Shown here: positions 1,252 to 25,925 of the stretch, piece after piece
Layout of the letters: each line of letters opens with the position of its first letter
How positions within the stretch are numbered: position 1 is the first letter of the stretch
Origin: Reclinomonas americana ATCC 50394
Lineage: Eukaryota
Direction of reading: 5' to 3'
DNA: 64,000 nt
Assembly: GCA_048213135.1 (NCBI GenBank)
Contig: PS015009.1
Span: 1,240,001 to 1,304,000, forward strand
The notes under the pieces: model-generated
Told to the model about the DNA's origin: nothing
The model's input: only the letters and a program-made list of their open reading frames with translations
Databases searched by the model: none
Translations under genes and position numbers: made by a program

Positions 1252-1310
1252 CCCGCTTTTGTTTCCTTAAGCAGGGGTAAACGGATCGTGAATTCATCTT
1301 ACACAGGAAG

Positions 1311-1342
1311 AAAAATAAAAAACCCGGTCGCCCGGGTTTTAT
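1311..1342 (-). terminator. Intrinsic terminator downstream of rho (probably bidirectional)
   Basis: aaaacccgg-tcgc-ccgggtttt hairpin flanked by A/T tracts between convergent genes. Confidence 0.75.
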
Positions 1343-1366
1343 TGTATGCTATAATCAGTTTAGTTT

Positions 1367-3010: not shown

Positions 3011-3258
3011 AAAAAATTGAAAAATTCTTTCGTCAAAAATCCGGGCTTAAAATCTGAAAATGAAATGAGAATTTATGATTGATGGAATGGAGAACCTGAT
3101 AAAGAGAATGGTTGGATAAACTTATCAGCCTTGTTCCGGAGCCAAAACTAGGCTTTTTTTCGCAAATCAGCAATTTTTTGGATGGACGGCAGGCGGTTTT
3201 TGGCCCTCAAAAGGCCTTCCGGGGCGGAATTGGCGCCGCAGGATCGGCGTTCTATCGT

Positions 3259-9785: not shown

Positions 9786-9797
9786 AGGCTGCAAATA

Positions 9798-9823
9798 TAA
9801 AGAGCCGCCCCCAGAGCGACTCC
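9798..9823 (-). terminator. Intrinsic terminator ending the 4-gene surface-protein operon
   Basis: Minus strand gagtcgc-tctgggg-gcggctc-tttt ~30 nt after stop at 9854. Confidence 0.6.
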
Positions 9824-9853
9824 TTATGTATGATGCATAGATGGCCGTGCAGA

Positions 9854-10885
9854 TTATACGTTCGTTTTCAGGGTGTCTTTAAGGCCGGAGGATTTTTTCT
9901 CTTTAGTTTTTTGTTTTTGCTGTGGTGTGGATGGGTCGGTATTAATAAAGAACAGGATGGGTTCGCTCCTGCTTTCGCCATTGCCATCCGATTGGTTAAC
10001 AGGATTACCCAACGCGTCGAGGGACTGGATCGTCCAGATAAAACGCTTGAGCCCTTGTGTACCGTTGTTGCCGTTCGCTTTATACTCTGTGCCACGGTTA
10101 CTTTTTACGGTATTGTTATTCTGCCCGCGGGTTGATGGTGCCGAGGTGCTGTCATCGTCTTTGGGTATGTCAATAAATGAAAGCTGCGGCTGCCAGATGT
10201 ATTGGGTCATGCCTTTCACTTCCTTGTCCAGCAGCGGCTGGTTGGAACGCAGGGCCTGCAGGGGTGTTTGATAATCGAGTATTTCGAACACCTGTATGCG
10301 GTAAGTTACCGGCTCTCTCTGTTGCGGTACAACGGGTGTCCAGCGGAAGGTGATTGCCGTTTGCGCTACTTTTCCATCCAGTACTTCCTCGTTGTAGGGT
10401 TTCATCAAAATCGGCAGTTGCGTATTGGCCAGGTAGAAGTTGCGGCACACCTGTTCGGTAAGCGGTGCAAAATCGGCCGGGCGAACCAGTTGAACACAAA
10501 GCGTATAGTTATCAGCGGGCAGCTTGCCGCTTTTATTCAGCGCGGTGCGGTATTTACCGGTGAAGATCATGTTCTCCAAGGGCAGCACTTCCGCGGCACC
10601 CAGTACCACGTTACCCGTGGTAAAAGTGAATACCTGGGCACGGGCCAGATCGGTAGTGCCTATCACTGTGCCATCAAGGGTTTTGATCTCTGCTTTGATC
10701 TTGGCTTCCGATGCCCCACCCGATCCGCCTCCCGTAACAAGGAGCGTTAATACTTCTTTCCGCGTGGCCCATTCACTTAACGTGGAGGGTGGCGTTGGCG
10801 ACAGTACCAGGGTGAGCTTCAACTGTGCGGAAGCTCCTGTGCACAGGAAAAAGAAAAAAAGGCTGCTGTATAGGAATCGTTTCAT
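9854..10885 (-). CDS. Secreted 343-aa protein, Ig-like N-domain + FN3-like FRWTP module
   Basis: Signal peptide MKRFLYSSLFFFFLCTGASAQ (ATG 10885); YTLCVQL...CRNF, TFRWTPVVP..REPVTYRIQV, FIWTIQ, SEP shared with 668-aa protein. Confidence 0.8.
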   Translation of the reverse strand: MKRFLYSSLFFFFLCTGASAQLKLTLVLSPTPPSTLSEWATRKEVLTLLVTGGGSGGASEAKIKAEIKTLDGTVIGTTDLARAQVFTFTTGNVVLGAAEVLPLENMIFTGKYRTALNKSGKLPADNYTLCVQLVRPADFAPLTEQVCRNFYLANTQLPILMKPYNEEVLDGKVAQTAITFRWTPVVPQQREPVTYRIQVFEILDYQTPLQALRSNQPLLDKEVKGMTQYIWQPQLSFIDIPKDDDSTSAPSTRGQNNNTVKSNRGTEYKANGNNGTQGLKRFIWTIQSLDALGNPVNQSDGNGESRSEPILFFINTDPSTPQQKQKTKEKKSSGLKDTLKTNV

Positions 10886-10886
10886 G

Positions 10887-12644
10887 TTATTTCTTTTTGG
10901 TGTCGAACCTGTACTGGAATCCTGTTCTGCAGGTGCTTTCCAGGTAATTGGCGCCGGCAGGGTTGATCTCATTACCATATTTATACTTGTTGGTACTGAG
11001 GAAGGTGGTCCAGGTCAGTTTTTTTGTGATTTTGTAATCTACGTTACAACTGGCGATGAAATTGTTGTTGCTGCTGTAACTGTTCAGTTTACCCAGGGTG
11101 TACTGTAATTGTCCGCGTAGCTGTACTTTCTTTTTGGCAACGGGCATTCCCAACGCGGTGCTGACGGTGAACAGTGTGGTCTTCAGTGAAGCAGGGGCGG
11201 GAATACTGTTGTAAAAATACAGCACACTGAAATCGGGGCTCAGGTCTCTGGTAAAATAAACGGGCACATAAGTAAGCAAGGCCATATGCGTTTTATTCGA
11301 TGTGGTTAAGCCGGTCACCACGTCCCTTTCATCGTAAATGCTGAAATTATAACTGAGACTGATGAGGTGGCTCATTTTCGTATTCATCCAGGTATAGGAA
11401 GGGTTAATGCCCAGGTCATTGCTCACGTTCTTGATGCCGTAAGGGTTGATGCCGCTGGCCGACTGGAAACCAAAGTTGTTGTAGTTGAGGTTAAGACTCC
11501 AATGGTCGTTGAATTGGGTAAACCAGTTCAGGTTGCCGATGAATTGCTTCGCCTTCAGCGCGGTATTGCTCACGTTATTGATGCGCTGCCCGATGCTGGC
11601 CACCACATTCATTTTATTTTTCCAGGCATTGAAACGGGTATTCAGCATATAGTCAAGCCGGTCGGGTTGGAGATAAGGATAACCGGTGGTTTGGAAACCC
11701 GCGCCCAAATATTTTACCGTAGCGCCAATATCCCATTGCTGCGAGCGCCTGCCCAGCGATGCCTGGCCTGCATAATCGGTAACTGTAGAGGTATGCGCCT
11801 CAATAAAAGGCTTGAGTGAACGAACGATCGGGCTTAACACGGAATTGAGGTCTTTGGTAAAGGTGGATTGTGCGCCTTCCATTTTAATGTACCAGTTCTT
11901 CTCAAAATATACATCGCTTACAAAACTCATGGTAAACCCTTCCTGCGGTTTAATGGTGGCAGGTGGTGGCAGGGCTGAGTTCACCACATCTTTGCCTTTG
12001 GCCACATTGAACGCGAACAGGTACTCTCCTTCTTTTTCCCAGCCCACCTGCGCCATCCAGTTGCGGCGTTTATACGCTCCCATTACTGCCGGGCTGCCGG
12101 AGAAAAAGTTGACGGCCTGCTGCGAGATCCCGGTAAAGGCTTTAATTCTCAGTTTACCAGGCCGGAGATCTACACCCGCGCCAAAGATGCCGATGTCGCC
12201 GGTAGACAGTTCAGAATATTTAAGGTACTGTGTCCCCAGCTGCAGTTCGGCCCATTTGTATTTGGGGTTGAGACCGAAGTTATTCATCGGGTTGGTAATG
12301 TACTGCCCGAAGCTGGGTTTGCTGATACCGGAGTACGGACCCGCGAAATTCGTAGGGATGGCGGCAAAATTGAAATTGAATGGAATGCTGAAATCCTTGC
12401 TGAATTTGAAAGTAGGCGTAAAATTAAATCGTACCTGGTTCCACGGGCGGCGGGGCAGGTAGCCCGTCCACCCTGAGGGGTTACGGTCGAGGCCATATCC
12501 CTCATAGCTGATGCCCATGGTACCGCTGATCTGCAGCTTGTCTTTCACCACGTCCTTAACATTCGTCTTCACCGTATCCTGGGCTGATGCGGACAGGCCG
12601 AACAGGAGCAGCAGCCCGGGCACTATTTTTCTTTTTTGCATCAT
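10887..12644 (-). CDS. Large outer-membrane beta-barrel of unknown function (585 aa)
   Basis: Signal peptide ending SASAQ; alternating aromatic/polar strands throughout (e.g. LNWFTQFNDHWSLNLNYNNF); C-terminal GFQYRF beta-signal-like end. Confidence 0.8.
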   Translation of the reverse strand: MMQKRKIVPGLLLLFGLSASAQDTVKTNVKDVVKDKLQISGTMGISYEGYGLDRNPSGWTGYLPRRPWNQVRFNFTPTFKFSKDFSIPFNFNFAAIPTNFAGPYSGISKPSFGQYITNPMNNFGLNPKYKWAELQLGTQYLKYSELSTGDIGIFGAGVDLRPGKLRIKAFTGISQQAVNFFSGSPAVMGAYKRRNWMAQVGWEKEGEYLFAFNVAKGKDVVNSALPPPATIKPQEGFTMSFVSDVYFEKNWYIKMEGAQSTFTKDLNSVLSPIVRSLKPFIEAHTSTVTDYAGQASLGRRSQQWDIGATVKYLGAGFQTTGYPYLQPDRLDYMLNTRFNAWKNKMNVVASIGQRINNVSNTALKAKQFIGNLNWFTQFNDHWSLNLNYNNFGFQSASGINPYGIKNVSNDLGINPSYTWMNTKMSHLISLSYNFSIYDERDVVTGLTTSNKTHMALLTYVPVYFTRDLSPDFSVLYFYNSIPAPASLKTTLFTVSTALGMPVAKKKVQLRGQLQYTLGKLNSYSSNNNFIASCNVDYKITKKLTWTTFLSTNKYKYGNEINPAGANYLESTCRTGFQYRFDTKKK

Positions 12645-12764
12645 ACAACAGTTTTGGTTTTATTAGTTTTCCATTTTAGAATGCCATGCCGAGGTAACAA
12701 GGCATCTCTTTAAGTGAATAAGATTCCCCCTGGCGTCGGAATGACATACTGGTGATTGGGTACA

Positions 12765-15700
12765 TCATTTCTTTTTGATCACAAAGTCAAAACAAGCAAT
12801 CACTTCACACTCCTTGCACTGGTCGTCGCGGAAAATGAATTTCACACATATCCTTCCTTTCAGTTCGCAGCAATCGATCGCCGGTGGCGGCGGCAACAGG
12901 AAGTTCATCGATACCGCTGTATTGTTGGGTATGGTGAAGTTGTTGCCGTTGTTCCATATCACCTCCCGTGGGTTCTGGTATACGCCGGTACCTGTTCCGT
13001 TGAAACTGGGTACCTGTACGCCGCCAAACATGGTGATCTTACCCGGCACCGCGCCTATATTACCTGCAGAAGCTGTGCTGGCCCAGGTAAAAGGAAGGTT
13101 CACACACTTCATACACTCTTTGTTGAAGTTGTCGGTAATGGTATAACTCACCACATTGGCCCTTACTTCAGTAATATTGGCTGTACCCAGGCCATTGATG
13201 ATGAAATTGTTGTTCACCTGCGTAGCGTTGCCGTTATTGGTGTAAGACGGATCTTTAGGCGCCACCTTAATATCGTAAGGACAGCAGGCGGTATCTACCG
13301 GGCAATCCACTTTAAACCGGATAACACAGGTATCGCATATTTTACCATTGCAGAAACCGTATAACGTTAATGTATATACGCCGCTGACAGTTGGTGTAAA
13401 GCTGAACGGAACAAAGCCGCTGCTGGTACCCATTGGCCCGGTGAAATTGTACTGAACATTGCCGGGGCAATTATCCGGGAAACAGATATAAGACGCATTC
13501 ACGGTATAAGGTGTTTTACACTTCAGCGTGTAGTCCTTATCACAGTTAAGTTTGATGCCCACCGGTCCGGGACCAGGCGTTGGTGTGCCGGTGCCGGGGA
13601 TGTTCTTGGTTTGTGTATCGGTTGGGTTTCCGTGCCCGGTTTGTTCCGACAGGGTGATATCGCCCCAGTGGCTTTCCCTGCAATCGCATCCATCCTGTTT
13701 GCAATCCACCACAATGGGAACACGACAGGTATCGCAGAGCATAGTACCGCAATAGGCTTGTATGGTAAGGTAATAGTTGCCATTGGGCAGGCCGGTGGGT
13801 ATGGTAATGCTGTTGCCCGACGGTCCTGCAACGATTACGTTAGACGCGTTGTACAGGGTGTATACCACATTTGGCGGACAGGTTTGATCGGCACAAACAA
13901 AGCTGCCTGTAACCGTGAAGCTGGCCTTGCAATCCTCACCTTTGATCACGATCGGTTTAGTGCTTTTGCAATCGATCTTACCGGTTTTACCTGTCTTGTC
14001 ATTTTTCCAGTAAGGGCTTTCTTTCCAGTAGCTGCCTTTGCAGCAGTCCTTGCATTCCACTTTAAAGTAGATCACACAGCTGTCGCATATTTTACCGTCG
14101 CACCAGCCATACAGGGTGAGTGTGTAGGTACCGTTCTGTGTTGGCGTAAAGGTCAGCGGCGGGTAAGTGCCGGTAATGGGCGCACCTGTTGGAGGCTGCA
14201 GGGAATACGTGATCTTGGGCGGACATTTTTTACCGGCGCAGGTAAAGCTGGCGGTTACGGTATAAGGCTGGTTGCATTTCAACGTATAGGTTTCTTTGCA
14301 ATGCAGGTTTTGCTGTACCGGTAAATTGGCTTTCGCGTTAACGCCATCTCCTTCCTTAATCGTGATCTCGTTCCATTTGCTTCCCTTACAATCGCAGCTG
14401 TCGCAGGATGGCAGGGTTATCGTATAGGTCTTACTGGTGTCTTTACAACCGGTAGCCAGGTCGGTAACAATGATCGAATACGAACCTGCGGGTGCCGGTG
14501 TATAGAATGGATTATTGCCATTGGTGCCAACCGGGTTGCCATTGTATACCCATTGTATGTTGTAAGGCACAGCGAAGGCGCCGATGAGTGGCCTTGGTGC
14601 AAACAGGGTATCCTTACGGCAGTTGCAGGGAATGCTGTCGCAATAGTGCGGGAACAGGTCAACCGGTGGCCGTGCATTGATCACGAAATTGGAAGAACTG
14701 CTGCAACCTGTTGCCGGGTTGGTATAAGTAGCGGTATAAGTACCCGCAGCGGAAACCGTGATGCTGGTGGTAGTAGCGCCGGTATTCCAGGTGATGTTGG
14801 ACGCGTAGTTGGTTACGGTAAGTGTCCTGGGCGTACCTGCACAGTAAGGTCCTGATCCGCCATTGATCGCCGGCGGATTCGGAATAGGGTTCACAAACAC
14901 GGTGAGCTGGCAGGTATCGCGGCAGCCATATTCATTTTGCAGGATGAGGTAGTAGGTTGTGGTGGTACCCAGTCCGTATACAGGATAAGCTGAACTGGTT
15001 GAAGCCGGTGCACCCGCAATTACATTCGCATACCAGGCGTACTGGTGGTTGGGTAATGATGGTGTTGACAAGGTTACATTACCCGGACCGCAAAGCCGGT
15101 TGGATGGCGACGCGTTGATGATGGCTTTAGGTTTGGGCGCTGCTTTCACTTCCACCGAATCGCTGGTGCAGGTGCAGCCATTGGAATTGGTAATGATAAC
15201 ATGGTACCAACCGGGCGTGGTTACGGTAAGCGTATTGGTAACACTGTTGGGTACAGGCGCAATCCAGTTACCACCAACATATTGTTCCCACACATAACTG
15301 TAGCCCATGCCGGTAGGCGCTGTAAGCGTGGCTGGCTGGCCGGGGCAGAGATAAGCGGGTTGTATCTGGCAATTGCTTACACCTTGTTTAACAGTTATGT
15401 TTTTGGTAGCGGTGCAGGTATTGCCCAACTGGTCAACTACAGTAAGCGTTACCGTGTAAGGGCCAGCCGTGTTGTATACATGCACGGTTGAAGCGGTATA
15501 GGCAGAGAAGCCATCACCAAAGTTCCAGGCATAACTTACATAACTGCCGGGTGTTGACGTCATTACTACCTGCTGGCCGGTACACACAGGTGTGTTCATG
15601 TTAATGGCCAGTGGTGTGTAAACCACATTCATGGTGGCTATACTCTGGCAGCTCACCTGTCCGTCGTTATAGTTGATGGTAAGCGTTACAGGATAGCTGC

Positions 15701-18611
15701 CCGCTCCGGCGTAACAGTGTTGCGGCGGATTGGCCGATGTATTTACCGGTGAGCCATCACCAAAGTTCCAGCTGTAAGTAACATACGAAGGATTGGTGGT
15801 GATAACAGTAGAGATGTTATTTACTGTTAAGCAACCATTACAACCCAGCGTATAAGTAAAGGCCGCTTGTATGGGTACGGTTACAATAGTGGTGGCACAA
15901 TTGCCGGTACAGCTGGTAGGATTGGGTGAAGGAGCGCCTACACAATACTTAACACAGTATACACCCGCGCCGGGGAATGTATGCGGCATGGGAACACCAT
16001 TCGTTCCGGGAACAACCGGGGAACCATCGCCAAAATCCCAGGTAATAGGCCTTCCGCCGGGGTTTACCGAATTGCCGGTGAACGTGTATTTATCGCAGGC
16101 CTGGCGGGTTACACTGGTGATCGCAGGCTGGTTAACATCGGGGCAGCATATTTTTTCTACCGTGAACGACACAAACTTTTTACAGGTACCATAAGTCACT
16201 TCCACGCAGAAGTTACCCCAGGTAGTCGTTGTATATGCGCTGGTGGTCTGGCCCGCTATGATGTTGCCCGGCACAGGTGTTAATCCTGTATACCATTGGT
16301 AGGTAAAGGTTCCCGCGCCAGGTTTTTTTACTACTACACTCAGGTTCTCATTCACGGCACCACCATTGCAGCGGGGTGTACATTCTTTCACTCCTTCAAT
16401 GAGGAAAGGATCTTCTACATTATAAAAGAAACGTTTGGTACAGGAGCCATTGGTTACATCTACCCAGTATGATCCTGTGGAGGTAATGTTGCTGATGGAA
16501 GTACCTGTTGCACCGGTGCTCCACTGGTAAGTATAACCGGGCAACCCGTTCACGGTTAGTGTAGCACCATTGGGCGGTGTGCAGATGTCGAATTGCTGTG
16601 TAATGGTGGCCGCCGGTTTTTTGGAGATGTGGATATGCATAGTATCCAATCCGCAGTTAGACGTTGCCGTTAGTATGGCTGTCCAGGGGCCATTGCCCGC
16701 CACCTGTCCGTGCCATAAAATAGTAGGCGTTGCGGTTCCCTGCCCGTAGGTTACGGAACCCAGGTTTGATGGGGTGATGGTCCACTGCACATTTTCGCCG
16801 GGTGGCAGGTTACCGCCGGTGAGCGAGTAGCTGTAGCTGTCATCCACACAAACTTTTTGCTGGCCCGCGGCATTGCCGATGGAGGCCTGTGTTACGGTAA
16901 GGCTCCTGGCTGCAGAAGGACAGAAAGGATAGCTGTTGCGCCTGAGTTGTGCGGTAACCGTTCCGGGAAGCGTGTTCCACAGCACATTGACAGAGTTGCC
17001 GGTTACACTGGTCAGACAACCGGGCTGGAAGCAACCGCTTGGTGTTACCGTCCATTCGTAAATATAACCAGAAGGAGCGGGTATGCTCATGGTATAGGTG
17101 TACTGCGATCCGGGGCAGGCTTTGTTGGGCCCGATGATGTTACCGGATACGGCAGAATCAACAACCGTGATCTTGATGTATTGTGTATCGAGGCTGTTGC
17201 AATAAGCATTGGTGGTTTCCCACACTTTTGCAATGTAGGTACCAACCGCTGTAAATACCGGAGTGAACGAACTGCCGCTGCCGGTTGGCGGAACAACTCC
17301 AACAGCAGGCGTTACCTGCCATTGGAAGGTTCCGCTGCCGGGACTTACGGATAGACTGGCCCCGCTACCCTTGCAGATGGTTTGGTTGAAGTAGGCCTGG
17401 AATTTCCCTTTTGGTGTAATGGTTATTTTACCTGAACTGCCACAGCAAATGTGTTTGTTCTCCAGGTTAATGGTGAGTTCGTAAGTGCCGGGGGGCAGCC
17501 CGTTCCAGTTTACCCAAACGGTATTGTTATCGGGCAGCGTACTCAGCGCATTGTCATGGTTGCTGTTGGCGGTAATATTATTGAGGTGCCAGGTATAGAA
17601 AGTGCCCGGCAACGCAGGTAAAGTATAAGAAGTAATGCTGGTGGGGCATGGAAACAGGTTGCCCGCGGGTACCGGGTTTTGTGGTATGATGGGCACCGCT
17701 ACGGCAGTGGTGCATCCGCCCGGACAAACAGCGATCACCTGGCCCTGTACATTACCATTACCCCAAACAATGGTTACCGAAGTGGCGGTTTGGGCTATGA
17801 TGGTGCCGCCAACCGGTGTAAGCCAGGTGGGATTGGCACAGTTCACTGCATGATAGGTAGCCGTGTCTCCCGAACAAACGGTGCTCACACATTCAATGGC
17901 AAAGTTGCCGGGCGTTATGATCACCCGTTTAATAATGGTATCGGCGCAGCAGGTGGTAATAATAGGATGTCCCTGTGAGTCTACTGTTGAAGAAAAACTG
18001 TAAGCCACCAGCATTACAGGGTAAGTGCCCGGTGCTGTGTATATATGCGTGGGGTTGGTGGCGGTGGAATACGTACCATCACCAAAACTCCAGCTGTACA
18101 TCACCGGTCCGGTTGAGGTAGTGGTGTTGGTGAAATAAATGGTGGAACCGGCGCAAACATTATTCGGTGTAAACGTGAAGTTGGCGACAGGTTTGTCTTT
18201 CACATTCACGGTGAGGCATTGGGTAAAGGTATTGCCGCTGCCGTCTGTTACGGTAAGTGTTAGTACATATGTGCCGGTAGAAGGCCAGGTAACATTTACG
18301 GTTGGCGTATTGTTAGGCACGATGCTGATGGGCGATGGTCCTGTAACGGTCCACAGGTAAGTGGCCCAGGTACCAGCCGCGGTATAGCTGTATTTCTGTT
18401 TTACGCAAACAGCAATGCTTTTACAATCGCGGTTATCCTGTCCGGGGGCGCCGCCTGTGGCATCTTTCTGGTTAAGACAGTCGGGCGACGAAGTCAGGAT
18501 GTCTACCTGGTTGCAGGTTTGCGCCTGTACCGTATTGCTGCTGATCAGTGATCCCGCAAAGAGGAAGAAGATGAGCAGACTTTTGAGTATGTGGTAATAA
18601 ATCTTTTGCAT
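12765..18611 (-). CDS. Giant secreted Cys/Thr-rich PKD/Ig-like repeat protein (1948 aa), putative adhesin or fibre subunit
   Basis: Signal peptide ending VQAQ; four W.FGDG PKD motifs; many YxW Ig-like strands; three Cys-rich C-proximal repeats; no T9SS CTD motif seen. Confidence 0.85.
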   Translation of the reverse strand: MQKIYYHILKSLLIFFLFAGSLISSNTVQAQTCNQVDILTSSPDCLNQKDATGGAPGQDNRDCKSIAVCVKQKYSYTAAGTWATYLWTVTGPSPISIVPNNTPTVNVTWPSTGTYVLTLTVTDGSGNTFTQCLTVNVKDKPVANFTFTPNNVCAGSTIYFTNTTTSTGPVMYSWSFGDGTYSTATNPTHIYTAPGTYPVMLVAYSFSSTVDSQGHPIITTCCADTIIKRVIITPGNFAIECVSTVCSGDTATYHAVNCANPTWLTPVGGTIIAQTATSVTIVWGNGNVQGQVIAVCPGGCTTAVAVPIIPQNPVPAGNLFPCPTSITSYTLPALPGTFYTWHLNNITANSNHDNALSTLPDNNTVWVNWNGLPPGTYELTINLENKHICCGSSGKITITPKGKFQAYFNQTICKGSGASLSVSPGSGTFQWQVTPAVGVVPPTGSGSSFTPVFTAVGTYIAKVWETTNAYCNSLDTQYIKITVVDSAVSGNIIGPNKACPGSQYTYTMSIPAPSGYIYEWTVTPSGCFQPGCLTSVTGNSVNVLWNTLPGTVTAQLRRNSYPFCPSAARSLTVTQASIGNAAGQQKVCVDDSYSYSLTGGNLPPGENVQWTITPSNLGSVTYGQGTATPTILWHGQVAGNGPWTAILTATSNCGLDTMHIHISKKPAATITQQFDICTPPNGATLTVNGLPGYTYQWSTGATGTSISNITSTGSYWVDVTNGSCTKRFFYNVEDPFLIEGVKECTPRCNGGAVNENLSVVVKKPGAGTFTYQWYTGLTPVPGNIIAGQTTSAYTTTTWGNFCVEVTYGTCKKFVSFTVEKICCPDVNQPAITSVTRQACDKYTFTGNSVNPGGRPITWDFGDGSPVVPGTNGVPMPHTFPGAGVYCVKYCVGAPSPNPTSCTGNCATTIVTVPIQAAFTYTLGCNGCLTVNNISTVITTNPSYVTYSWNFGDGSPVNTSANPPQHCYAGAGSYPVTLTINYNDGQVSCQSIATMNVVYTPLAINMNTPVCTGQQVVMTSTPGSYVSYAWNFGDGFSAYTASTVHVYNTAGPYTVTLTVVDQLGNTCTATKNITVKQGVSNCQIQPAYLCPGQPATLTAPTGMGYSYVWEQYVGGNWIAPVPNSVTNTLTVTTPGWYHVIITNSNGCTCTSDSVEVKAAPKPKAIINASPSNRLCGPGNVTLSTPSLPNHQYAWYANVIAGAPASTSSAYPVYGLGTTTTYYLILQNEYGCRDTCQLTVFVNPIPNPPAINGGSGPYCAGTPRTLTVTNYASNITWNTGATTTSITVSAAGTYTATYTNPATGCSSSSNFVINARPPVDLFPHYCDSIPCNCRKDTLFAPRPLIGAFAVPYNIQWVYNGNPVGTNGNNPFYTPAPAGSYSIIVTDLATGCKDTSKTYTITLPSCDSCDCKGSKWNEITIKEGDGVNAKANLPVQQNLHCKETYTLKCNQPYTVTASFTCAGKKCPPKITYSLQPPTGAPITGTYPPLTFTPTQNGTYTLTLYGWCDGKICDSCVIYFKVECKDCCKGSYWKESPYWKNDKTGKTGKIDCKSTKPIVIKGEDCKASFTVTGSFVCADQTCPPNVVYTLYNASNVIVAGPSGNSITIPTGLPNGNYYLTIQAYCGTMLCDTCRVPIVVDCKQDGCDCRESHWGDITLSEQTGHGNPTDTQTKNIPGTGTPTPGPGPVGIKLNCDKDYTLKCKTPYTVNASYICFPDNCPGNVQYNFTGPMGTSSGFVPFSFTPTVSGVYTLTLYGFCNGKICDTCVIRFKVDCPVDTACCPYDIKVAPKDPSYTNNGNATQVNNNFIINGLGTANITEVRANVVSYTITDNFNKECMKCVNLPFTWASTASAGNIGAVPGKITMFGGVQVPSFNGTGTGVYQNPREVIWNNGNNFTIPNNTAVSMNFLLPPPPAIDCCELKGRICVKFIFRDDQCKECEVIACFDFVIKKK

Positions 18612-18616
18612 AACAG

Positions 18617-20623
18617 TTAGTTTTTGTGGTCAGGAACAGGGTTTCCTTTCTCACAGCCTTCTTTCTTTTTTTCATAGCACACCAGCTTGTTGCAGGTCGT
18701 GCAATCGGTGAATTCAATTTTATAGCGTATACACCATTTGAACAGCGCGCTGCAGCAGGGCACCATCTGTGGCGTGGTAATATTGATGCCCAGGCTGGTT
18801 TGCGGGCCGTTCCACTGCTGGCTGTTGGTGCCGTTGGTGAAGTGTCCGTAAGTGGCGGCATCTTTATTACAGGGAATACAGAGGTCATTTTCCGGTGTCA
18901 TTTCAAAATATACCAGTTCGGCTTTTATACTTTTTACGGTCTTCGCCGGGTTGGTGGTTACCGTAATGTTCTGGTTAAATGAAATGGTATTATTGGCAAT
19001 GGTAACGGGCGATGGTGACGGCGCATTGAGTGTAAAATGTTTTTCATCGCAGGCATCGCATTTGCATGGCGGCAGGTCGATGTCTATCTCTGCGCCGGGC
19101 TGGCAAACAATGGGGCCTGGATCTTTATCATCGCCCTGCAAACCTACCTTGATGGTATTTTGTCCTACAGGCACCGTTACATCTATACAATAATTAACCG
19201 ATGTGGTTGGGCCGGTATTCTGTACCTGCAATGCCGGTGTAACATTGGTTACGGTATAGGTTGGTGAATAGGAAGGATGATAAGCCTGGAAACCGCTACC
19301 GGGGTTGGCATAGGTGAGCTGGTAAATGGGACTCGTATACGTAGCGGTAAGACATATTTTGTATTTGTTGAAGCCGTCGGCGCCGGGCAGGCATTCCACT
19401 GAAACCAGTTTGAGCGAAAGGTTCACGTCACAGTTGTTAGCGGAGAACAACGTGGGTTCACTTTTGCCTTCATTGCTGCCAACAGGTTTGCCTTCGCGGG
19501 TAACCGCTTGTACCTGCCAGATGAAGTCGCAGAGGTAAGGTGGTTTGCAGGGGCCGGTGAGTATGCCATTGAACGTGGTTTCTGTCAGGTCGGTCACTTC
19601 TTTCTGCACCAGTGGTTTATTGGATTGCATGGCCTGCACACCATTCTGGCCCTGCATCAGCTGCCATACTTTTATGCGGTAAGTAACAGGTTCTGATGGT
19701 TTAGGATTTACGGGTGTCCAACGGAAAGTAGTAACACGGGTGAGGTCGCCCAGGTTCAGTACTTTATTGTTATCGGGATAAACATTTCGCGGCGGCGCTG
19801 TTTCCGATCCTGCTTTCACTTTAAAGGTCCAGGGTTCGCTGTTGCCATTATTGCGCCCCATGCCTTTCCCATCCTTATTCAGCGCCTGCACATTCCAGAT
19901 GAAGTCGCAGAGGTAAGGAGGTTTGCAGGGGCCGGTAAGTATATTGGTAACCGTGGCCTGTGTTACCTCACGTATGTCTTTTTCAATAACGGGTGTATTG
20001 GATCGCATGGCTGCGGCGCCGTTCTGGCCCTGCATCAGTTGCCATACCCGCAGGCGATAGGTTACCGGTTCGCGGGGTTTGGGCACCAGCGGTGTCCAGC
20101 GGAAAGTAACGGGGCGCTGCAGGTCGGCTTCGCTGTACTCTTTATCATTCTCGGGGTTGATCAATGTTGGCGGCGCATAGTCCACGTCTTTTGGTGTTTC
20201 CACTGTAAACTCGCGGCACATTTCGTTACTGATGGCCACCTTGTCGATGTTGAAGAACTGTGCGCAGATGGTATAGCTGCCGTCCTTCAGGTCGTTGCAG
20301 TTGCTGATCATACCGGTGAGCTCCTGCGTGGAAAAAGTCCTGGTGGTAAAATTGTCGACCGGTATAGCAGACGACGCGTTGCTTCCGCAAACAACCGATC
20401 CGCCGCTCCTGATCTGTATCACCAGGCGAACGCCTTCGATACGGGCATTGGGTTGTTTCTGCGCCACCAGCAACAGGGCACCGGGGGTGCTGCTCCAGCT
20501 GTCGATTTTGCCCGGCAACTGGTTCTTTACGGTAAAGTTGACAATTTTTATCTGCTGTAGCTGGCCGTTACTGCCCAGGACGAGCAGGAAGAGCAGGCAG
20601 AACAATGAGGCGATCTTCTTCAT
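18617..20623 (-). CDS. Secreted 668-aa protein: Ig-like domain, two tandem FRWTP modules, Cys-rich C-terminal domain
   Basis: Signal peptide MKKIASLFCLLFLLVLGSNGQ; duplicated VWQLMQGQNG...ILTGPCKPPYLCDFIW; CxxC/CC/CxxC C-terminus. Confidence 0.85.
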   Translation of the reverse strand: MKKIASLFCLLFLLVLGSNGQLQQIKIVNFTVKNQLPGKIDSWSSTPGALLLVAQKQPNARIEGVRLVIQIRSGGSVVCGSNASSAIPVDNFTTRTFSTQELTGMISNCNDLKDGSYTICAQFFNIDKVAISNEMCREFTVETPKDVDYAPPTLINPENDKEYSEADLQRPVTFRWTPLVPKPREPVTYRLRVWQLMQGQNGAAAMRSNTPVIEKDIREVTQATVTNILTGPCKPPYLCDFIWNVQALNKDGKGMGRNNGNSEPWTFKVKAGSETAPPRNVYPDNNKVLNLGDLTRVTTFRWTPVNPKPSEPVTYRIKVWQLMQGQNGVQAMQSNKPLVQKEVTDLTETTFNGILTGPCKPPYLCDFIWQVQAVTREGKPVGSNEGKSEPTLFSANNCDVNLSLKLVSVECLPGADGFNKYKICLTATYTSPIYQLTYANPGSGFQAYHPSYSPTYTVTNVTPALQVQNTGPTTSVNYCIDVTVPVGQNTIKVGLQGDDKDPGPIVCQPGAEIDIDLPPCKCDACDEKHFTLNAPSPSPVTIANNTISFNQNITVTTNPAKTVKSIKAELVYFEMTPENDLCIPCNKDAATYGHFTNGTNSQQWNGPQTSLGINITTPQMVPCCSALFKWCIRYKIEFTDCTTCNKLVCYEKKKEGCEKGNPVPDHKN

Positions 20624-20714
20624 AATACTGTTATTTGTATTTGGTACTTCGCTCCGGCACTAAACCCGGCTTCACGATACAAATATGTAATGAAGAAATA
20701 TGCTTTTTTATCGA

Positions 20715-20753
20715 AATGTATATGTGTGGGGGATGATTGTATAAGCGTGCGGG
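20715..20753 (-). promoter_or_regulatory. Candidate LytTR-binding direct repeat upstream of the surface operon
   Basis: aatgtatatgtgtggggg (20715-20732) and attgtataagcgtgcggg (20736-20753): 14/18 identical, 21-bp period; CATATTTG -7-like element just downstream on minus strand. Confidence 0.55.
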
Positions 20754-20794
20754 ACAATTACGAATGAGCAATTACGAATTACGAATCAGTATTT

Positions 20795-20830
20795 AACAAA
20801 ACAGGATGCTATTGTAAAAAGCATCCTGTT
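20795..20830 (-). terminator. Hairpin/terminator after the HK-RR-hypothetical unit
   Basis: 11-bp stem aacaggatgct / agcatcctgtt followed by T-rich sequence on minus strand. Confidence 0.6.
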
Positions 20831-20849
20831 GAACATTCGTAATTCATCA

Positions 20850-21941
20850 TCACCCTTTGGGTTCATTCCACGTAAAGAAGTCCACCTCCATATCGCCGTC
20901 GAAAATGTAGAGTTTGAACGTGTACTCCATCTGGTCGTTTTTGAATACGTTCTTCATCCCGGAGATGAACCACATCATTTTTATTTTGGGGAGCCCGGGT
21001 GCGAATTTTTTATAGTTGGTATACAGCGACCACTGCGCCATCCAGTTCACGGGGCTTTGGCTGATGGGCTTTTTGGCAACGGATGCCAGTATGAAATCGT
21101 CGCCGTAATGTTCTTTCATCGACGCTTTAATAACATCGTACACTTCAAAGAACAGGTTGCGGGCCCGGTTGCTGTCGCCAGCCACTTTAAAGAAGCCTTC
21201 GAAGTACCAGCGGCCATCTTTCTTTATCCTTTTAAGGGCGGTCCTTTCAAAACCCGGCAGTGTTACCTGGCTGGTATAGTATACCTGCCCGATGTAATCG
21301 GTGGAATCCCTGCCGGTCATCTTTTTCAGGGAATTGTAATTGTTGATCACGCTTTCAAATACGTCCCAGTTGAAAGCTGCTTTATCGTTCTCGAGTTTCA
21401 GCAGCCAGCCGGTTTTTATATTGCCCGCCTTTACTGGCTCTGCAGGTGCGGGTTTGGCAACAGGCGTGGATGGGGTATAGCCATCTGCAGGTTTGGAATA
21501 GCAAATGGATACGGCCGTTTTGCCTTCATAAAATATCCTGATCTTCCAGCCGCGGCTGCGGTAGTCCGAAAAATTCATTTTTGTGCTGGTGAGTGTCGGG
21601 CTGCCCAGCTTTGCCGCGAAATCATCCGGGGTCATAGCCCATGTCAGTTGCATGGGCATTGGTTTTTTATAATAGCCATAGCGTTCTGCAGCAGAACCGT
21701 AACGCAACTTGCCGTTCTCCAGCTCAACTTCAGTTATCACATCGTTCTCTCGTGAGATATAAATCGTGAAATTTTGGTCCCAGGCGTCGGTATAAAAAGT
21801 TTCCTGCTGTTTAAGTTGCCGGAATAAAGGATCAGATACCGGTTTACCTACCAGGTCGAGCAACCTGTCGCCCTGTATAGGCTGGGCAAAAGACGTGCTG
21901 TATAAAAGCAGTGCTAAAAGGCTGGTGATGAGGGTCTTCAT
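20850..21941 (-). CDS. Secreted hypothetical protein (363 aa), two domains joined by Pro/Ala linker
   Basis: Signal peptide MKTLITSLLALLLYSTSFAQ from ATG 21941; TPSTPVAKPAPAEP linker. Confidence 0.75.
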   Translation of the reverse strand: MKTLITSLLALLLYSTSFAQPIQGDRLLDLVGKPVSDPLFRQLKQQETFYTDAWDQNFTIYISRENDVITEVELENGKLRYGSAAERYGYYKKPMPMQLTWAMTPDDFAAKLGSPTLTSTKMNFSDYRSRGWKIRIFYEGKTAVSICYSKPADGYTPSTPVAKPAPAEPVKAGNIKTGWLLKLENDKAAFNWDVFESVINNYNSLKKMTGRDSTDYIGQVYYTSQVTLPGFERTALKRIKKDGRWYFEGFFKVAGDSNRARNLFFEVYDVIKASMKEHYGDDFILASVAKKPISQSPVNWMAQWSLYTNYKKFAPGLPKIKMMWFISGMKNVFKNDQMEYTFKLYIFDGDMEVDFFTWNEPKG

Positions 21942-22004
21942 GATCTTGTTTTCAGCCAAGATACTATCCCTGTTCTCTTTATGCAATACCGTGGAGAGGG
22001 TATT

Positions 22005-22772
22005 CTAGGCTTTGCGCCTGATCCATTTTTCGAACCTGGACAGGAAATCGTCTTTTCTTCTTGACGCCACCGGAAGTTCTTTCCCATTTTCAAGCACCAC
22101 ATCGCCCCCGCTGCCCTTAATGTATTCGCGGATGTAGGAAAGGTTGATGATGTATTTATCGTGTATCCTGGTGAAGTCGGCATCGGGCAGGAGTTTTTCG
22201 TATTCGCCGAGTTGCCGGGAAACCAGTATGCTCTTTCCGTCGTTAAGAAAAAAGTTGGTGTAATTGCCGTTGCTTTCGCAATACATGATGTCGGCCAGTT
22301 TTACGAACACGAGCCCGTTACTGGTAGAGAGCGGTATTTTTTGCGACTGCGTATTTTTTCCCGATGATTCGATGAGGGAGAACAGGTTGCGGTTAAATGC
22401 TTTCTGTTCGATCTTATCCGCAGCGGTATTAACCACGCTGATCAGTTTTTCTGTATTGATGGGTTTGGTGAGGTAACCGATGGCATGGTGCTCAAAGGCT
22501 TCAACGGCATAGTGACTGTAAGCAGTTACAAATATGACCTCAAACTGAACAGGTTCCAGTTGTTTGAGCATCTCGAAACCATTGAGGTGCGGCATTTCAA
22601 TATCCAGGAAAAGCAGTTGCGGCTGCAGCTCCCTTATCATGGTCAATCCTTTCCGGGCGTCGGTTTCCGTAGCCAGTACCTGTACCTGCGGACAATACCC
22701 GGCCAGCATTTTGGTGAGCAGTTGGGCATTCCTGGCCTCATCGTCCAGTATCATACAGCTGATGTTGATCAT
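22005..22772 (-). CDS. LytTR-family response regulator
   Basis: ILDDE, LFLDIEMP, FVTAY, YLTKP receiver; DIMYCESNGNYT, FTRIHDKYIINL, LPVASRRK LytTR. Confidence 0.96.
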   Translation of the reverse strand: MINISCMILDDEARNAQLLTKMLAGYCPQVQVLATETDARKGLTMIRELQPQLLFLDIEMPHLNGFEMLKQLEPVQFEVIFVTAYSHYAVEAFEHHAIGYLTKPINTEKLISVVNTAADKIEQKAFNRNLFSLIESSGKNTQSQKIPLSTSNGLVFVKLADIMYCESNGNYTNFFLNDGKSILVSRQLGEYEKLLPDADFTRIHDKYIINLSYIREYIKGSGGDVVLENGKELPVASRRKDDFLSRFEKWIRRKA

Positions 22773-22782
22773 ATGCCGGTGA

Positions 22783-25683
22783 TTAAGGTTGTAAGTCTAA
22801 AGGTATTTTCAAAATGATCGTGGTTCCCGAAGCATTGCCAGCAGCGTCGTACTTATCAACGATTATTTCTTCGATGCCATACAATTCCGCTCTTCTTTTC
22901 GATATCTGCATGCCGCGGCTCTGGTATTCGGTATGCGTTTCATTACGGAGCTGTAATGCTTTCTTTCTTCCCACACCATCGTCGTCGATACTGCAAAACA
23001 GCTTGCCTTCTTTCTTTTCAATTTCGATACAAATCTGTCCTTTCCTGTTCTCGAGGTGCCGGATACCGTGGCGGATAGCGTTTTCCACGTAGGGTTGCAG
23101 GAGCATGGCCGGAACAAATATGTGCTGCCTGTCGAGGTCCTCTCCTGCGGCTACAAAATACGTAAACTTATCATCAAAGCGCAGTGTTTCCAGCTGAAGG
23201 TAATTATCCAGGTACCGCATTTCTTCTTCCAGTGAAATAATGGCGGAGGAGGAATTGTCCAGCGTGCTGCGCAATAGTTCAGAAAATTTATCGAGGTATT
23301 TATCCGCCTGTTTAAAGTCGCCGTCAAACAAAAACCCTTTTATGGAGTTAAGACAATTGAACACAAAATGTGGATTGATCTGTGCTTTAAGGGCCTGCAT
23401 TTCCAGTTCCGACAGTTTTTTCTCCGTCACCACTTTTTCCACCGCGGCCTGCTGCTTTTGCCGGTTTCTCCTTTGCAGGAAAAAAATACTGCCCAGGAAA
23501 ATAAACAGGGCGATAAAGCTCCAGAATATCCCGTTCTTCCAGAAAGGTGTATTGATATAAATGTTGATGGAGGCGGTTTGGGTTGACGGACTGCCATCTC
23601 TTTTCAGGGTTCGTATTTTAATATTGCTGGCCCCGGGCGCCAGGCGACGCAGTTCCAGTACACTTCTTTCCAGCCGCAGCCAGTTGCCATCGTTGATGCT
23701 GTACTGGAATACGGGGTGATAACCCGTAAGATCAACCGCCGAAAATTCGATGGAGATGTCGTTCATATCATAGGGCAGATCATACGACACCGACACCGCT
23801 GTATCCTTACCGTTAATGGTGACCCGTGTTATGAAGGTTTGAATATCGGCAACGGGTAAACGCATTTCGGCAGGCAGGTAACTGATACCGCCGTTGGTAG
23901 CCAGGTAAACGGTGTCACGCTGGGAAAATATCGCATTCACCTGTTCACCGCTGAGCCCGTCGGCAATACCAAAAGCCGTATTGCTGTAGTTAAATTTTCC
24001 ATTGTTGAAGGTGTACCTGATCCGGCTCAGTCCTTTATTCGTACCCAGCCACACTTCACCGGCCTTGCTGCACAGCAGCGATTTACAGGTGTTGCCGGGT
24101 ATAATATCACCAAGGGCTATGCCCGCCACCACATCGCGGTTGCGCAGTACAAAAAGCGAGTCTGCACCCGGACCAACAAAGATGAGGTCGTCGGGTGTAC
24201 TGCACATGGTGTTGATCTTATACGTAAGTCCTTTTTGTTTGGTGCCGTAATAATACAATCCGCCGCCTTCCCACCTGTACAGTCCGTCGTTGGAACCAAT
24301 ATAAACCTGTCCGTTTCTGTCAGCAGCAAGGCTTACCACTCTTTTCCTGATGCTGTCGGTAATGCGGAAATCGGGCAGGTGTACTTTGTAGGTTACCGAA
24401 TGCGTACCCATGGCCATGGTGCTGTCATTGATAAGGAGCGCCGCCTTGGAAGAGCGGTTCTTCGGTCCCTGGAAGGATTCCTGTATCCGGTTGCCGGTTG
24501 TATTAAAAAGATAGGAGCCTGTTTGCGTGGCTACGTATATCCCTTGCCGTAAGTTGATGATATTCCGTACCCAGGTATCGGAGTTGGCGGCGGGTGTGAG
24601 CGAGGTTTTGGTCAGGCCGTACACCCCGTCATAGGCATATACTTCTCCTTTATTATTACCGGTTATATACAGGTTGCCGGTTTTGATGATGGCATTGAAA
24701 TTCTGCTGCAGCACGGGCAGGGCGGTAAAGGAAGATATACGTTTCTGCTGCACTTTGATCAGCCCCGATTCCCGGGAAGACAGCCAGCTGTTGCCATAAT
24801 CATCCTGCAAAACATTGCGGACATTGGAGCCGCTGGAGATGCTTTCACTCAGTTCCAGGGTTTCTGCATTGAGCAGGTACGTAATATCATTAACCGATGT
24901 GATGGTGGGCTGTTTGCCGGTATAACCCAGTATACGGATCTGGAAGGGATAGTCTTTTGTTTTCTCCGGCCGGGGTATGCCCTTATCGTCTATCCTGAAT
25001 TTGGTGATGGTATTGGACTGCCCGATGTACAATACGTCTTTTACTTTTTCACACCACAGGGAAAGCGCCGGGCTGATGCGATCACCTGCCACCAGTTTTC
25101 CGTTCACCAGGTAACGGAAGGAGTCGAGGCAGACCACCAGCAACTGATCACCGTTTACCTGGTATACCCGTATCGGTGGTTGTATGCGCTGGTCTTTATC
25201 CAGTATGGCGCTGTACTCCTTTACTTTATGGTCTTTGTAAATATAGAGGCTGCGCTGGTTGTTGCTGAATGCCATACCGCCATTGTCGAGCACATTGGCA
25301 GTGCTGGTATTGGCCATATTGATTTTGGCGAGTTCGGGGTCTGTGGTGCTGTTCTCGAAACGGTCTTTGGCCTGGTTATAATAAGAAGGTGGTTTGCCAA
25401 AGGGGATAGCCCATACCTGTCCGGCGCTGTCGAGCAATATATCCACGATCTCATTATCGGGCAGCCCCTGCGCTGTGGTGTAAGTACGGAATATCCTGCC
25501 GTCAAAGCGGCTGATGCCAATATCAGTGGCTATCCATAGAAACCCCCGCTTATCGAGCATCGTCCTGTACACGCTATTGCTGGCCAGCCCCTCCTTGGTC
25601 GTATACACAATGGTTTGCGTGGTTTGTGAGAAGGAAGGAAATGCCAGGAGCAGTACGACAATATGGACGATGAGTTTGCGCAC
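22783..25683 (-). CDS. LytS-like sensor histidine kinase with periplasmic beta-propeller + Y_Y_Y domain
   Basis: ALKAQINPHFVFNCLNSI, LLQPYVENAIRHG; YT..GL.SN propeller repeats; single TM after TPFWK; GTG 25683 preferred (track extension is 8-mer repeat DNA). Confidence 0.93.
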   Translation of the reverse strand: MRKLIVHIVVLLLAFPSFSQTTQTIVYTTKEGLASNSVYRTMLDKRGFLWIATDIGISRFDGRIFRTYTTAQGLPDNEIVDILLDSAGQVWAIPFGKPPSYYNQAKDRFENSTTDPELAKINMANTSTANVLDNGGMAFSNNQRSLYIYKDHKVKEYSAILDKDQRIQPPIRVYQVNGDQLLVVCLDSFRYLVNGKLVAGDRISPALSLWCEKVKDVLYIGQSNTITKFRIDDKGIPRPEKTKDYPFQIRILGYTGKQPTITSVNDITYLLNAETLELSESISSGSNVRNVLQDDYGNSWLSSRESGLIKVQQKRISSFTALPVLQQNFNAIIKTGNLYITGNNKGEVYAYDGVYGLTKTSLTPAANSDTWVRNIINLRQGIYVATQTGSYLFNTTGNRIQESFQGPKNRSSKAALLINDSTMAMGTHSVTYKVHLPDFRITDSIRKRVVSLAADRNGQVYIGSNDGLYRWEGGGLYYYGTKQKGLTYKINTMCSTPDDLIFVGPGADSLFVLRNRDVVAGIALGDIIPGNTCKSLLCSKAGEVWLGTNKGLSRIRYTFNNGKFNYSNTAFGIADGLSGEQVNAIFSQRDTVYLATNGGISYLPAEMRLPVADIQTFITRVTINGKDTAVSVSYDLPYDMNDISIEFSAVDLTGYHPVFQYSINDGNWLRLERSVLELRRLAPGASNIKIRTLKRDGSPSTQTASINIYINTPFWKNGIFWSFIALFIFLGSIFFLQRRNRQKQQAAVEKVVTEKKLSELEMQALKAQINPHFVFNCLNSIKGFLFDGDFKQADKYLDKFSELLRSTLDNSSSAIISLEEEMRYLDNYLQLETLRFDDKFTYFVAAGEDLDRQHIFVPAMLLQPYVENAIRHGIRHLENRKGQICIEIEKKEGKLFCSIDDDGVGRKKALQLRNETHTEYQSRGMQISKRRAELYGIEEIIVDKYDAAGNASGTTIILKIPLDLQP

Positions 25684-25710
25684 CTTATAAAGATAATATG
25701 ATAATGTGAT

Positions 25711-25812
25711 GATTTGGGGATGTGCGGATGTGTGAATGAGAAAATGTGCGGGTGTGGGGATATGCGGATGTGCGGATGTGAGGATGAGAGGATGTGAGGA
25801 TATGTGGATGGG
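25711..25812 (+). repeat. Degenerate 8-mer tandem array (GATGTGCG-like), same family as 5831-6016
   Basis: gatgtgcg-gatgtgtg-aatgagaa-aatgtgcg-ggtgtggg-gatatgcg-gatgtgcg-gatgtgag-gatgagag-gatgtgag. Confidence 0.8.
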
Positions 25813-25925
25813 ATAGAGGCAATAAAAAAGCGAAATACATCGCTGCACTTCGCTTATGTTGGTGGGATTTCTATTTTGGCTGCGGGTAGTAAGTCTTGAT
25901 ACCTGCTATTTGTTACCTGATACCT

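Follow-up and report, generated by a model that had tools for sequence, protein, structure and literature searches.

The four-gene operon described here is best explained as a compact variant of an undescribed Bacteroidota system, in which an outer-membrane beta-barrel is paired with proteins that bear a TANFOR-type leader. It lies in a window of 64,000 nucleotides, the whole stretch of DNA that was analysed, and its genes, designated A to D, are listed in Table 1. In this reading, the barrel C would be a dedicated pore that D closes, and it would export or tether cargo led by a TANFOR-type domain, among it the TANFOR polymorphic toxins of other genomes. We regard the question as evenly balanced.

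Table 1. Features of the operon, with positions numbered within the window and domain boundaries in amino acids
Feature	Position	Strand	Description	Domains
Gene A	18617-20623	(-)	668 aa, 26 Cys; proposed leader-bearing cargo	Signal peptide; TANFOR-like 21-145; FN3 'FRWTP' 148-269 and 274-395; middle domain; Cys-rich 524-659
Gene B	12765-18611	(-)	1948 aa, 97 Cys; proposed second half of split cargo	Signal peptide; PKD and Ig-like; three Cys-rich repeats 1403-1776; Cys-rich domain 1776-1948
Gene C	10887-12644	(-)	585 aa; outer-membrane beta-barrel (modelled)	
Gene D	9854-10885	(-)	343 aa from ATG at 10885; predicted barrel plug	Signal peptide; TANFOR-like 21-150; one FN3, about 154-313, with low-complexity insert
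GC-rich hairpin	9797-9827	(-)	3' of gene D, directly before recX; possible terminator	

The initial annotation recognized four co-oriented Sec-signal genes, and the open reading frames confirm their sizes and the gaps between them (5 nt between A and B, 120 nt between B and C, and 1 nt between C and D), the start of D being placed 31 codons earlier by the ORF tool than the ATG adopted here. Each of the four proteins opens with a hydrophobic leader ending before Gln, as judged by eye and by pattern, and a pattern check of these leaders found no lipobox match. The terminator that had been assigned to positions 9798-9823 corresponds to a genuine hairpin (-24.3 kcal/mol, z -3.0, with 2 of 200 shuffles equally good), but its U tract is weak and it is absent from the list returned by a consensus terminator scan. 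The claim of a separate upstream regulatory region was not sustained: no site was found, and promoter-like matches were at the level of chance (22 versus 19.7). Of 35 testable loci, just 9 have a LytTR-like regulator upstream, and it was rejected as a core part of the system. RNA contigs from two runs of one study span parts of all four genes, and were discounted as proof of transcription because the flanking DNA is covered too.

The dedicated large barrel postulated for the operon is borne out by the AlphaFold2 model of C, a 26-strand outer-membrane beta-barrel without a plug of its own (pLDDT 92, pTM 0.84). Strand and loop counts give short periplasmic turns and long outer loops, and the terminal Phe580 is conserved. 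Among the 50 fold matches listed, the best is MtrB (Z 20.1, rmsd 5.0, 461 aligned); the ushers PapC and FimD score Z 15.0 and 14.1, and identity to all three is only about 9-10%. C has no Pfam or NCBIfam match, and a search of PDB sequences with the barrel, the D family, and the Cys-rich domain returned nothing below E 0.19. In the atlas, the neighbours of the barrel are all hypothetical, the nearest with a name (DUF6029, at 0.93) being a lead only, and no published description of the barrel was found in a search that covered few subscription papers. A profile-free library search for homologues of the barrel returned 1,323 representatives at E<=0.001 and 734 at 1e-10. PMC7198977 describes MtrB as holding a partner protein and as similar in size to LptD and FimD. 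C resembles MtrAB and LptDE in having 26 strands and, in the model described below, a separate partner in its lumen, which would here be an FN3 module. The partner in MtrAB is a multihaem cytochrome with CxxCH motifs, whereas A to D have none. LptD, for which LptE serves as a separate plug, was absent from the 50 fold matches listed.

On sequence grounds, a remote TANFOR domain followed by FN3 makes up both D and the N-terminal part of A. Profile-profile comparison of D with barrel-adjacent TANFOR-type N termini (14 in number, 6 of them weak TIGR02542 matches) gave 99.5% and E 3e-23 over 194 columns. Neighbours of distant barrels match TIGR02542 weakly in 11 of 30 cases (E 1.6e-7 to 0.098), scoring at most 31 bits against a cut-off of 67 bits, and A and D themselves have no TIGR02542 match. 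The link to TANFOR/FN3 clusters suggested in the initial annotation thus holds, as remote homology. Likewise upheld is the homology of A and D over the N-terminal domain (96.5% by profile-profile comparison) and the FRWTP module, the two copies in A matching D with BLASTP E values of 3e-22 and 6e-18; homologues of A carry 1-5 FN3 modules. The order that characterizes TANFOR-domain proteins, a homologous N-terminal domain and then FN3, is therefore present. With the TANFOR polymorphic toxins (TIGR02542; PMC7073777), the operon has in common this N-terminal organization, Sec leaders, the absence of a T9SS tail, and a PKD-rich neighbourhood. Those proteins have a C-terminal toxin and an immunity gene, whereas the operon has neither: A, B, and D match no toxin family in Pfam or NCBIfam, and the gene after D is recX.

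Jana, Salomon, and Bosis (2020; PMC7073777) hypothesized that TANFOR proteins, which co-occur with the T9SS in >95% of cases and include giants with nuclease toxin ends and immunity genes, are exported by the T9SS. The word 'barrel' is absent from the main text of that paper. Its table places unannotated genes that are barrel-sized, as judged from length only, upstream of several TANFOR genes (548-560 aa in Tannerella, 574-593 aa in Chitinophaga, and one of 560 aa in Pedobacter). Two barrel accessions sought in the table were absent from it, and for many TANFOR genes of Flavobacterium the gene directly upstream encodes a T9SS SprB protein and is not barrel-sized.

Complex prediction covered the C+D pair and placed the FN3 domain of D inside the barrel lumen. 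The score was 0.87, the best of three controls giving 0.00; 51 of 78 solved pairs attain the mark adopted, against 2 of 108 mismatched pairs and 7 of 44 blind neighbours. Runs share at least 72% of their contacts, and the pLDDT of the partner is at least 76. D touches alternating residues of strands 16-26 together with the outer loops of C, just 1 of 50 periplasmic-turn residues being included, and its C terminus, as read from the contact list, faces the periplasm. In the model, this orientation is what a plug, or cargo at the start of export, would show, not a finished giant displayed outward. Across the family, conservation at the interface residues of D does not exceed that of its other residues (0.356 versus 0.358, p 0.61), and D folded from its single sequence is unusable as a model (pLDDT 31).

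These results bear on the proposal, made in the initial annotation, that C acts as an usher/translocon or anchor and D as a chaperone or adaptor. The complex model and the fusions of module and barrel in relatives make D better read as a lumen plug than as a periplasmic chaperone, and neither D nor A has a PapD-type or other Pfam match. We consider it highly improbable that the operon builds a true chaperone-usher-like fibre, with D as a soluble chaperone and A and B as subunits that polymerize through C. Its layout resembles that of usher operons, D has two Ig-type domains, and C is, like FimD and PapC, a monomeric barrel large enough to accommodate an Ig-type domain in its folded state, with ushers as its second-best fold matches. 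However, the usher barrel has 24 strands, against 26 in C, and the model of C lacks the built-in plug, NTD, and CTD of an usher, as it lacks an usher match in Pfam. Moreover, the operon contains no small pilin-like gene, whereas chaperone-usher systems have pilins, and most distant loci pair the barrel with a single giant.

The association of barrel and module is widely conserved, as had been anticipated: neighbourhood analysis, both phylum-wide and for close barrels, found barrel relatives accompanied by genes for FRWTP and Cys-domain proteins. In the set of 142 distinct close barrels, the order A-B-C-D is kept in Chitinophagaceae, D following the barrel at 127 of 128 loci, a B-like gene preceding it at 115 of 120, and A preceding B at 82 of 86. 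Across the phylum, the barrel (E<=1e-45) and the TANFOR-FN3 module (E<=about 1e-24) occupy an identical 68 of 401 genomes, an overlap obtained with score thresholds set after the tables had been seen and from genomes that are not phylogenetically independent; it includes 39 of the 39 genomes left out when the module profile was built. The module lies within 20 kb at 82 of 89 barrel loci and within 1 kb at 58. In four instances (L295, L297, L294, and G325, the last a single frame of 1044 aa), it is fused to the N terminus of the barrel, and in L295 and L297 a separate module-led cargo adjoins the fusion. A module-bearing protein of at least 1,200 aa is encoded in 45 of 58 distant regions. The module-led giants of distant relatives span 1,300-3,100+ residues and are in some cases toxin-ended, as in L221 with its colicin/pyocin DNase domain (E 4e-41), and L061 carries an appended serine hydrolase.

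B matches PKD_4 (E 2.5e-46) and also Ig_7 in Pfam, and has neither a TANFOR-like leader nor a T9SS tail; lacking the leader, it would be exported by an indirect route. The Cys-rich C-terminal domain that had been attributed to both A and B is indeed common to them (98.2% and E 4e-14 by profile-profile comparison, with a pairwise E of only 0.013), but it is not always C-terminal in relatives, where a further 98-466 residues come after 51 of the 223 copies. It also occurs in proteins with type A-like T9SS tails (L266, L270, and L274), and its best match in the atlas (0.76) is uninformative. As a C-terminal export signal, the domain was rejected, since it does not always end the protein, occurs at sites remote from barrels, and precedes type A-like tails; it is a passenger. 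In the cargo proteins of L295, a single chain begins like A (BLAST E 5e-12) and ends like B (E 2e-33).

The reported lack of a T9SS tail was substantiated by an HMM scan, which found no TIGR04183 or TIGR04131 match in the proteins of the window. Nor did any of 47 C termini (44 homologues and 3 window proteins, a subset of 102 distinct B and 77 distinct A ends) match an NCBIfam T9SS model, the positive control giving E 5e-11. SprA is nevertheless present in 68 of 68 barrel genomes, as opposed to 45 of 80 barrel-free genomes (Fisher p 2e-11 for the first 63 barrel genomes), and T9SS-tailed SprB proteins adjoin some barrels, as at L234. A, B, and the TANFOR giants could accordingly exit via SprA, with C, assisted by D, as a cognate shuttle or surface anchor of the PorP/SprF kind. 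Such a T9SS accessory, which we think unlikely, would accord with the hypothesis and co-occurrence reported in PMC7073777, with the type A-like tails that follow some Cys domains, and with the type B cargo of PMC10202324, whose genes cluster with that of a cognate barrel and which this barrel anchors. Against it, besides the missing tails, the SprA-free control genomes are small (1.8-3.1 Mb), and differences of lineage and lifestyle may therefore explain the enrichment; a GldN match came from just 18 of the 68 barrel genomes, although divergence may hide others. The fusions of module and barrel imply insertion from the periplasm. C is twice as long as PorP/SprF and lacks both a match to that family and a partner with a type B tail. 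The PorP barrel has 14 strands, unlike the 26-strand, FN3-filled lumen modelled here.

A further reading makes the FN3 domain a permanent cork, with the TANFOR-like domain exposed, whereas the long bodies of A, B, and the giants never leave the periplasm or the lumen of vesicles, where they would act as a scaffold, relay a signal, or form a payload that vesicles carry. The modelled D, with its C terminus toward the periplasm, suits such a tether or trans-envelope sensor, as does the high Cys content, which is equally appropriate to periplasm and surface; MtrB, the closest fold, keeps its partner permanently. In addition, a remote paralogue of the barrel lies in a cluster with FecR, a CHASE2 adenylate cyclase, and a gene weakly resembling TANFOR (an order seen in 10 loci, L285-L293 and L299, with Pfam run on L287 and L291), from which it follows that the barrel fold can serve signalling. 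We nonetheless hold this reading to be improbable: toxin ends (PMC7073777; the DNase of L221) have to get out of the producing cell, a surface location suits PKD/Ig rods and added enzymes such as that of L061, and no FecR or cyclase gene was seen, from gene lengths only, near the window-type loci inspected.

Two-partner secretion (TpsB/TpsA, CdiB/CdiA) is similar in that a dedicated barrel gene lies beside a giant cargo. Its cargo is recognized through a module at the N terminus and sometimes ends in a toxin, and both features recur at barrel loci, the toxin at some of them. However, the barrel of type Vb systems is of the Omp85 type with POTRA domains, and C, with its 26 strands, matches neither; the cargo, beta-helical in two-partner secretion, is here Ig/FN3 and Cys-rich.

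If C is a dedicated pore closed by D, Sec would carry all four proteins across the inner membrane, and C would form a wide 26-strand pore in the outer membrane. The TANFOR-like plus FN3 module would engage this pore, FN3 filling the lumen and the TANFOR-like domain lying among the outer loops, as modelled for D. D, the module alone, would be a resident plug and perhaps an assembly partner of the barrel. Module-led cargo, namely A and the giants elsewhere, would dock in the pore and then be threaded out N terminus first, domain by folded domain, or stay tethered. B is probably the partner of A, the cargo being split between the two, and would provide a long PKD/Ig rod, stiffened by disulfides, that serves in adhesion or displays enzymes. 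The proposed export has no evident source of energy, and counted against a dedicated pore are the SprA of all 68 hosts, the leaderless B, the interface of D, conserved no more than its surroundings, and the FecR/CHASE2 setting of the remote barrel paralogue. The earlier usher-like interpretation thus keeps its barrel, co-occurrence, absent T9SS tail, and TANFOR link, and loses its chaperone and usher. We advance more tentatively, as a possibility with clearly less than an even chance, a new and widespread two-step secretion system of the Bacteroidota, in which a 26-strand pore, corked by a separate FN3 plug, reads the TANFOR-FN3 leader and passes folded domains to the cell surface without the T9SS. 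Its products would be rods resembling adhesins in this operon and TANFOR toxins in other genomes, and the pore would have a common ancestor with the sensing barrel that is coupled to FecR and CHASE2.

The arrangement of barrel, plug, and leader fits none of the known systems with which it was compared; the family of the leader is already known, and the function is predicted. For the passage of TANFOR toxins across the outer membrane, the T9SS has only been hypothesized (PMC7073777) and the tail is absent, and the barrel may be their missing route of export or docking. A candidate pore, leader, and plug can now be named, present in 68 of the 401 sampled genomes of the phylum. If the proposal is true, a pore that passes or holds folded FN3 domains would be a new type of machine, and a possible tool for display.

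Genes A to D, the four co-oriented minus-strand genes of the initial annotation, were all recovered, with gaps of 5, 120 and 1 nt, and to judge from sequence they form an operon. A related strain's contig covers it entirely in identical order, and the indels within genes are all in-frame or compensating. The hairpin proposed 3' of D is real, and recX lies downstream. Homology between A and D over their N-terminal domain and 'FRWTP' module is evident pairwise (E 3e-22) and between profiles (96.5%); for the Cys domain said to be common to A and B, pairwise similarity is weak (E 0.013) and profile similarity clear (98.2%). PKD and Ig domains were the sole Pfam families found in B, and no significant family was found for A, C or D in Pfam or NCBIfam. 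Of the genes upstream, the secreted protein matches nothing in Pfam or NCBIfam, and a similar LytTR regulator lies upstream in nine of 35 testable loci. The repeat stretch in front of A is probably a dispersed intergenic element, since it recurs in many other contigs.

Coordinates of the operon, its flanks and features of related loci
Feature	Location	Strand	Description
Gene A	window 18617-20623	minus	668 aa; Cys-rich, proposed cargo
Gene B	window 12765-18611	minus	1948 aa; Cys-rich, proposed cargo
Gene C	window 10887-12644	minus	585 aa; barrel
Gene D	window 9854-10885	minus	343 aa; candidate plug
B-C spacer	window 12669-12758		variable REP-like element; a 35-nt palindrome stands there instead in the related strain
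Upstream gene-A interval	window 20743-20857		short repeats of AATTACG type and inverted copies of them
Upstream genes	window 20850-25848	minus	secreted 362-378 aa protein, LytTR regulator, propeller-type sensor kinase
Module-barrel fusion	L295:3895-17479		module N-terminal
Module-barrel fusion	L297:2181-9788		module N-terminal
Module-barrel fusion	L294:16800-19496		module N-terminal
B homologue	L061:2350-8433		terminates in a serine hydrolase domain of the beta-lactamase family (Pfam E 1.6e-49)
B homologue	L059:2555-8629		same serine hydrolase-type end, by eye
Inserted enzyme	L195:11793-13118		secreted; P-domain and lysyl-oxidase-like
Inserted enzyme	L197:7671-9011		similar to that of L195, by eye
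Inserted enzyme	L196:7280-9034		M43 peptidase
Remote barrel class	L287:5032-13225		example of the 800-925 aa class

Relatives of the barrel were found at 69 metagenome loci and in genomes, where the best 80 of 251 matches are mostly from Chitinophagaceae and often from Ferruginibacter; the wider family comprises 1,323 representatives at 50% clustering. The neighbourhood analysis called for earlier, made on 142 distinct close barrels, revealed a conserved gene order: D follows the barrel in 127 of 128 loci with sufficient flank, in 115 of 120 a B-like gene comes before it, and 82 of 86 have A ahead of B. A homologues vary in FN3 number (1-5) and B homologues in length (mostly 970-2,181 aa). One genome carries two full loci, an additional B-like gene lies upstream of A at L041 and L069, and the barrel gene is split at L066 and L069. 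At four loci (L056, L063, L115, L122) close barrels are accompanied by a TANFOR-type giant of 1,600 aa, an FN3 rod of 700 aa or both in place of A and B, connecting the two locus types.

The second type is seen around distant barrels, where 52 of 58 regions encode a D-type module protein, 45 one of at least 1,200 aa and 20 also the 700-aa FN3 rod. The TANFOR family model, TIGR02542, was matched weakly by 11 of 30 module N-termini from these regions (E 1.6e-7 to 0.098), and the D family aligns by profile with 14 of the 30 (99.5%, E 3e-23). The link to TANFOR raised earlier thus holds as remote homology, and by these comparisons D, like the front of A, is a remote TANFOR-FN3 module rather than a member of TIGR02542. 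Across a 401-genome phylum sample, TIGR02542 itself gave weak matches in eight genomes, none above cut-off, and in six of them a match and a barrel are no more than about 12 kb apart. Barrel (E<=1e-45) and module (E<=about 1e-24) occur in an identical set of 68 of the 401 genomes, at thresholds picked after the tables were seen; the module profile was built from 33 modules, and 39 of the 68 genomes played no part in it. A module lies within 20 kb of 82 of 89 barrel loci, and a listed barrel within 20 kb of 89 of 104 modules. TANFOR proteins have been described as polymorphic toxins, with export by the T9SS hypothesised, in a paper whose main text does not contain the word 'barrel' (Jana et al., PMC7073777). 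Some TANFOR rows of its table have an unannotated upstream gene of 548-593 aa, comparable to the barrel in length, and in others the upstream gene encodes a T9SS SprB or PKD lipoprotein. Titles, abstracts and passages of the literature yielded no description of the barrel.

The proposed barrel was modelled both alone and with D as its partner. C is modelled (AlphaFold2, 129 sequences; pLDDT 92, pTM 0.84) as 26 strands with no plug domain, with turns of 3-7 residues on one side and loops of 5-27 on the other. Its top fold match is MtrB (Foldseek E 1.6e-9, TM 0.52; Z 20.1, rmsd 5.0, 461 aligned), followed by the ushers PapC (Z 15.0) and FimD (Z 14.1), tied with porins, all at about 10% sequence identity. 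These matches indicate size class rather than family. The strand number is 26 in MtrB and LptD, as modelled for C, and 24 in FimD (PMC7198977). An usher-like fibre seems to us very improbable. A remote class of the same barrel (L285-L293, L299), frequent among the 401 genomes, belongs to a conserved cluster of a TPR gene, a 350-400 aa gene with a weak TANFOR-like match, a FecR gene, the barrel and a CHASE2 adenylate cyclase, and appears to be a paralogue for trans-envelope signalling.

Modelled together, C (30-585) and D (21-320) scored 0.87, against 0.00 for the best control; the mark for such scores is attained by 51 of 78 solved pairs and two of 108 mismatched ones. At least 72% of contacts agree between runs, partner pLDDT is at least 76, and sequence search found no PDB relative of either chain. 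In this model D sits within the lumen, touching alternate residues of strands 16-26, whose contacting face is the more polar (mean hydropathy -0.55 vs +0.33), together with the outer loops and one of 50 periplasmic-turn residues. On the side of D, contacts come mostly from the FN3 module. The contact list, read with the usual FN3 topology, would place the TANFOR-like domain outside and point the C terminus of D toward the periplasm. Interface residues of D are no more conserved than the rest. Independent support for D in the barrel comes from fusions of the module to the N terminus of the barrel, at three loci and in genome G325; at L295 and L297 the fused gene is followed by a separate cargo that begins with the module, a division of labour matching that of D and A. 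That the complex acts as a periplasmic tether or sensor we consider improbable.

As anticipated, no T9SS type A or type B tail was found in the window proteins or in any of 47 C termini tested, and the control worked. All 68 barrel genomes encode SprA, as do 45 of 80 barrel-free ones (the first 80, ordered by handle, of the 210 that gave no match). The genomes of the controls without SprA are small, and GldN was detected in only 18 of the 68; the data thus fit T9SS-dependent or T9SS-independent export. A role as T9SS accessory is somewhat unlikely and stays alive because PorP/SprF, as described in passages of PMC10202324, set a precedent for cognate barrels.

The Cys domain, present in 20 of 401 genomes, has further residues after it in 51 of 223 close copies and precedes type A-like tails, read by motif, at L266, L270 and L274. 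It is therefore a passenger, and its candidacy as export signal was rejected because copies can be non-terminal, lie far from barrels or stand before such tails. Two proteins at L295 are single chains with an A-like front and a B-like end, suggesting that A and B associate as the halves of one cargo. The secreted enzymes inserted between Cys-rich genes and barrel at L195, L196 and L197 have no visible T9SS tail and are possibly extra cargo. Distant giants have toxin-domain ends (L221).

That C is a dedicated pore or tether has, in our estimate, an even chance. D would plug the barrel, the TANFOR-FN3 module would serve as leader, A would be exported through C or tethered in it, B would piggy-back on A, and the two may function in adhesion. 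The hydrolase and toxin ends are as expected for a display or delivery platform.
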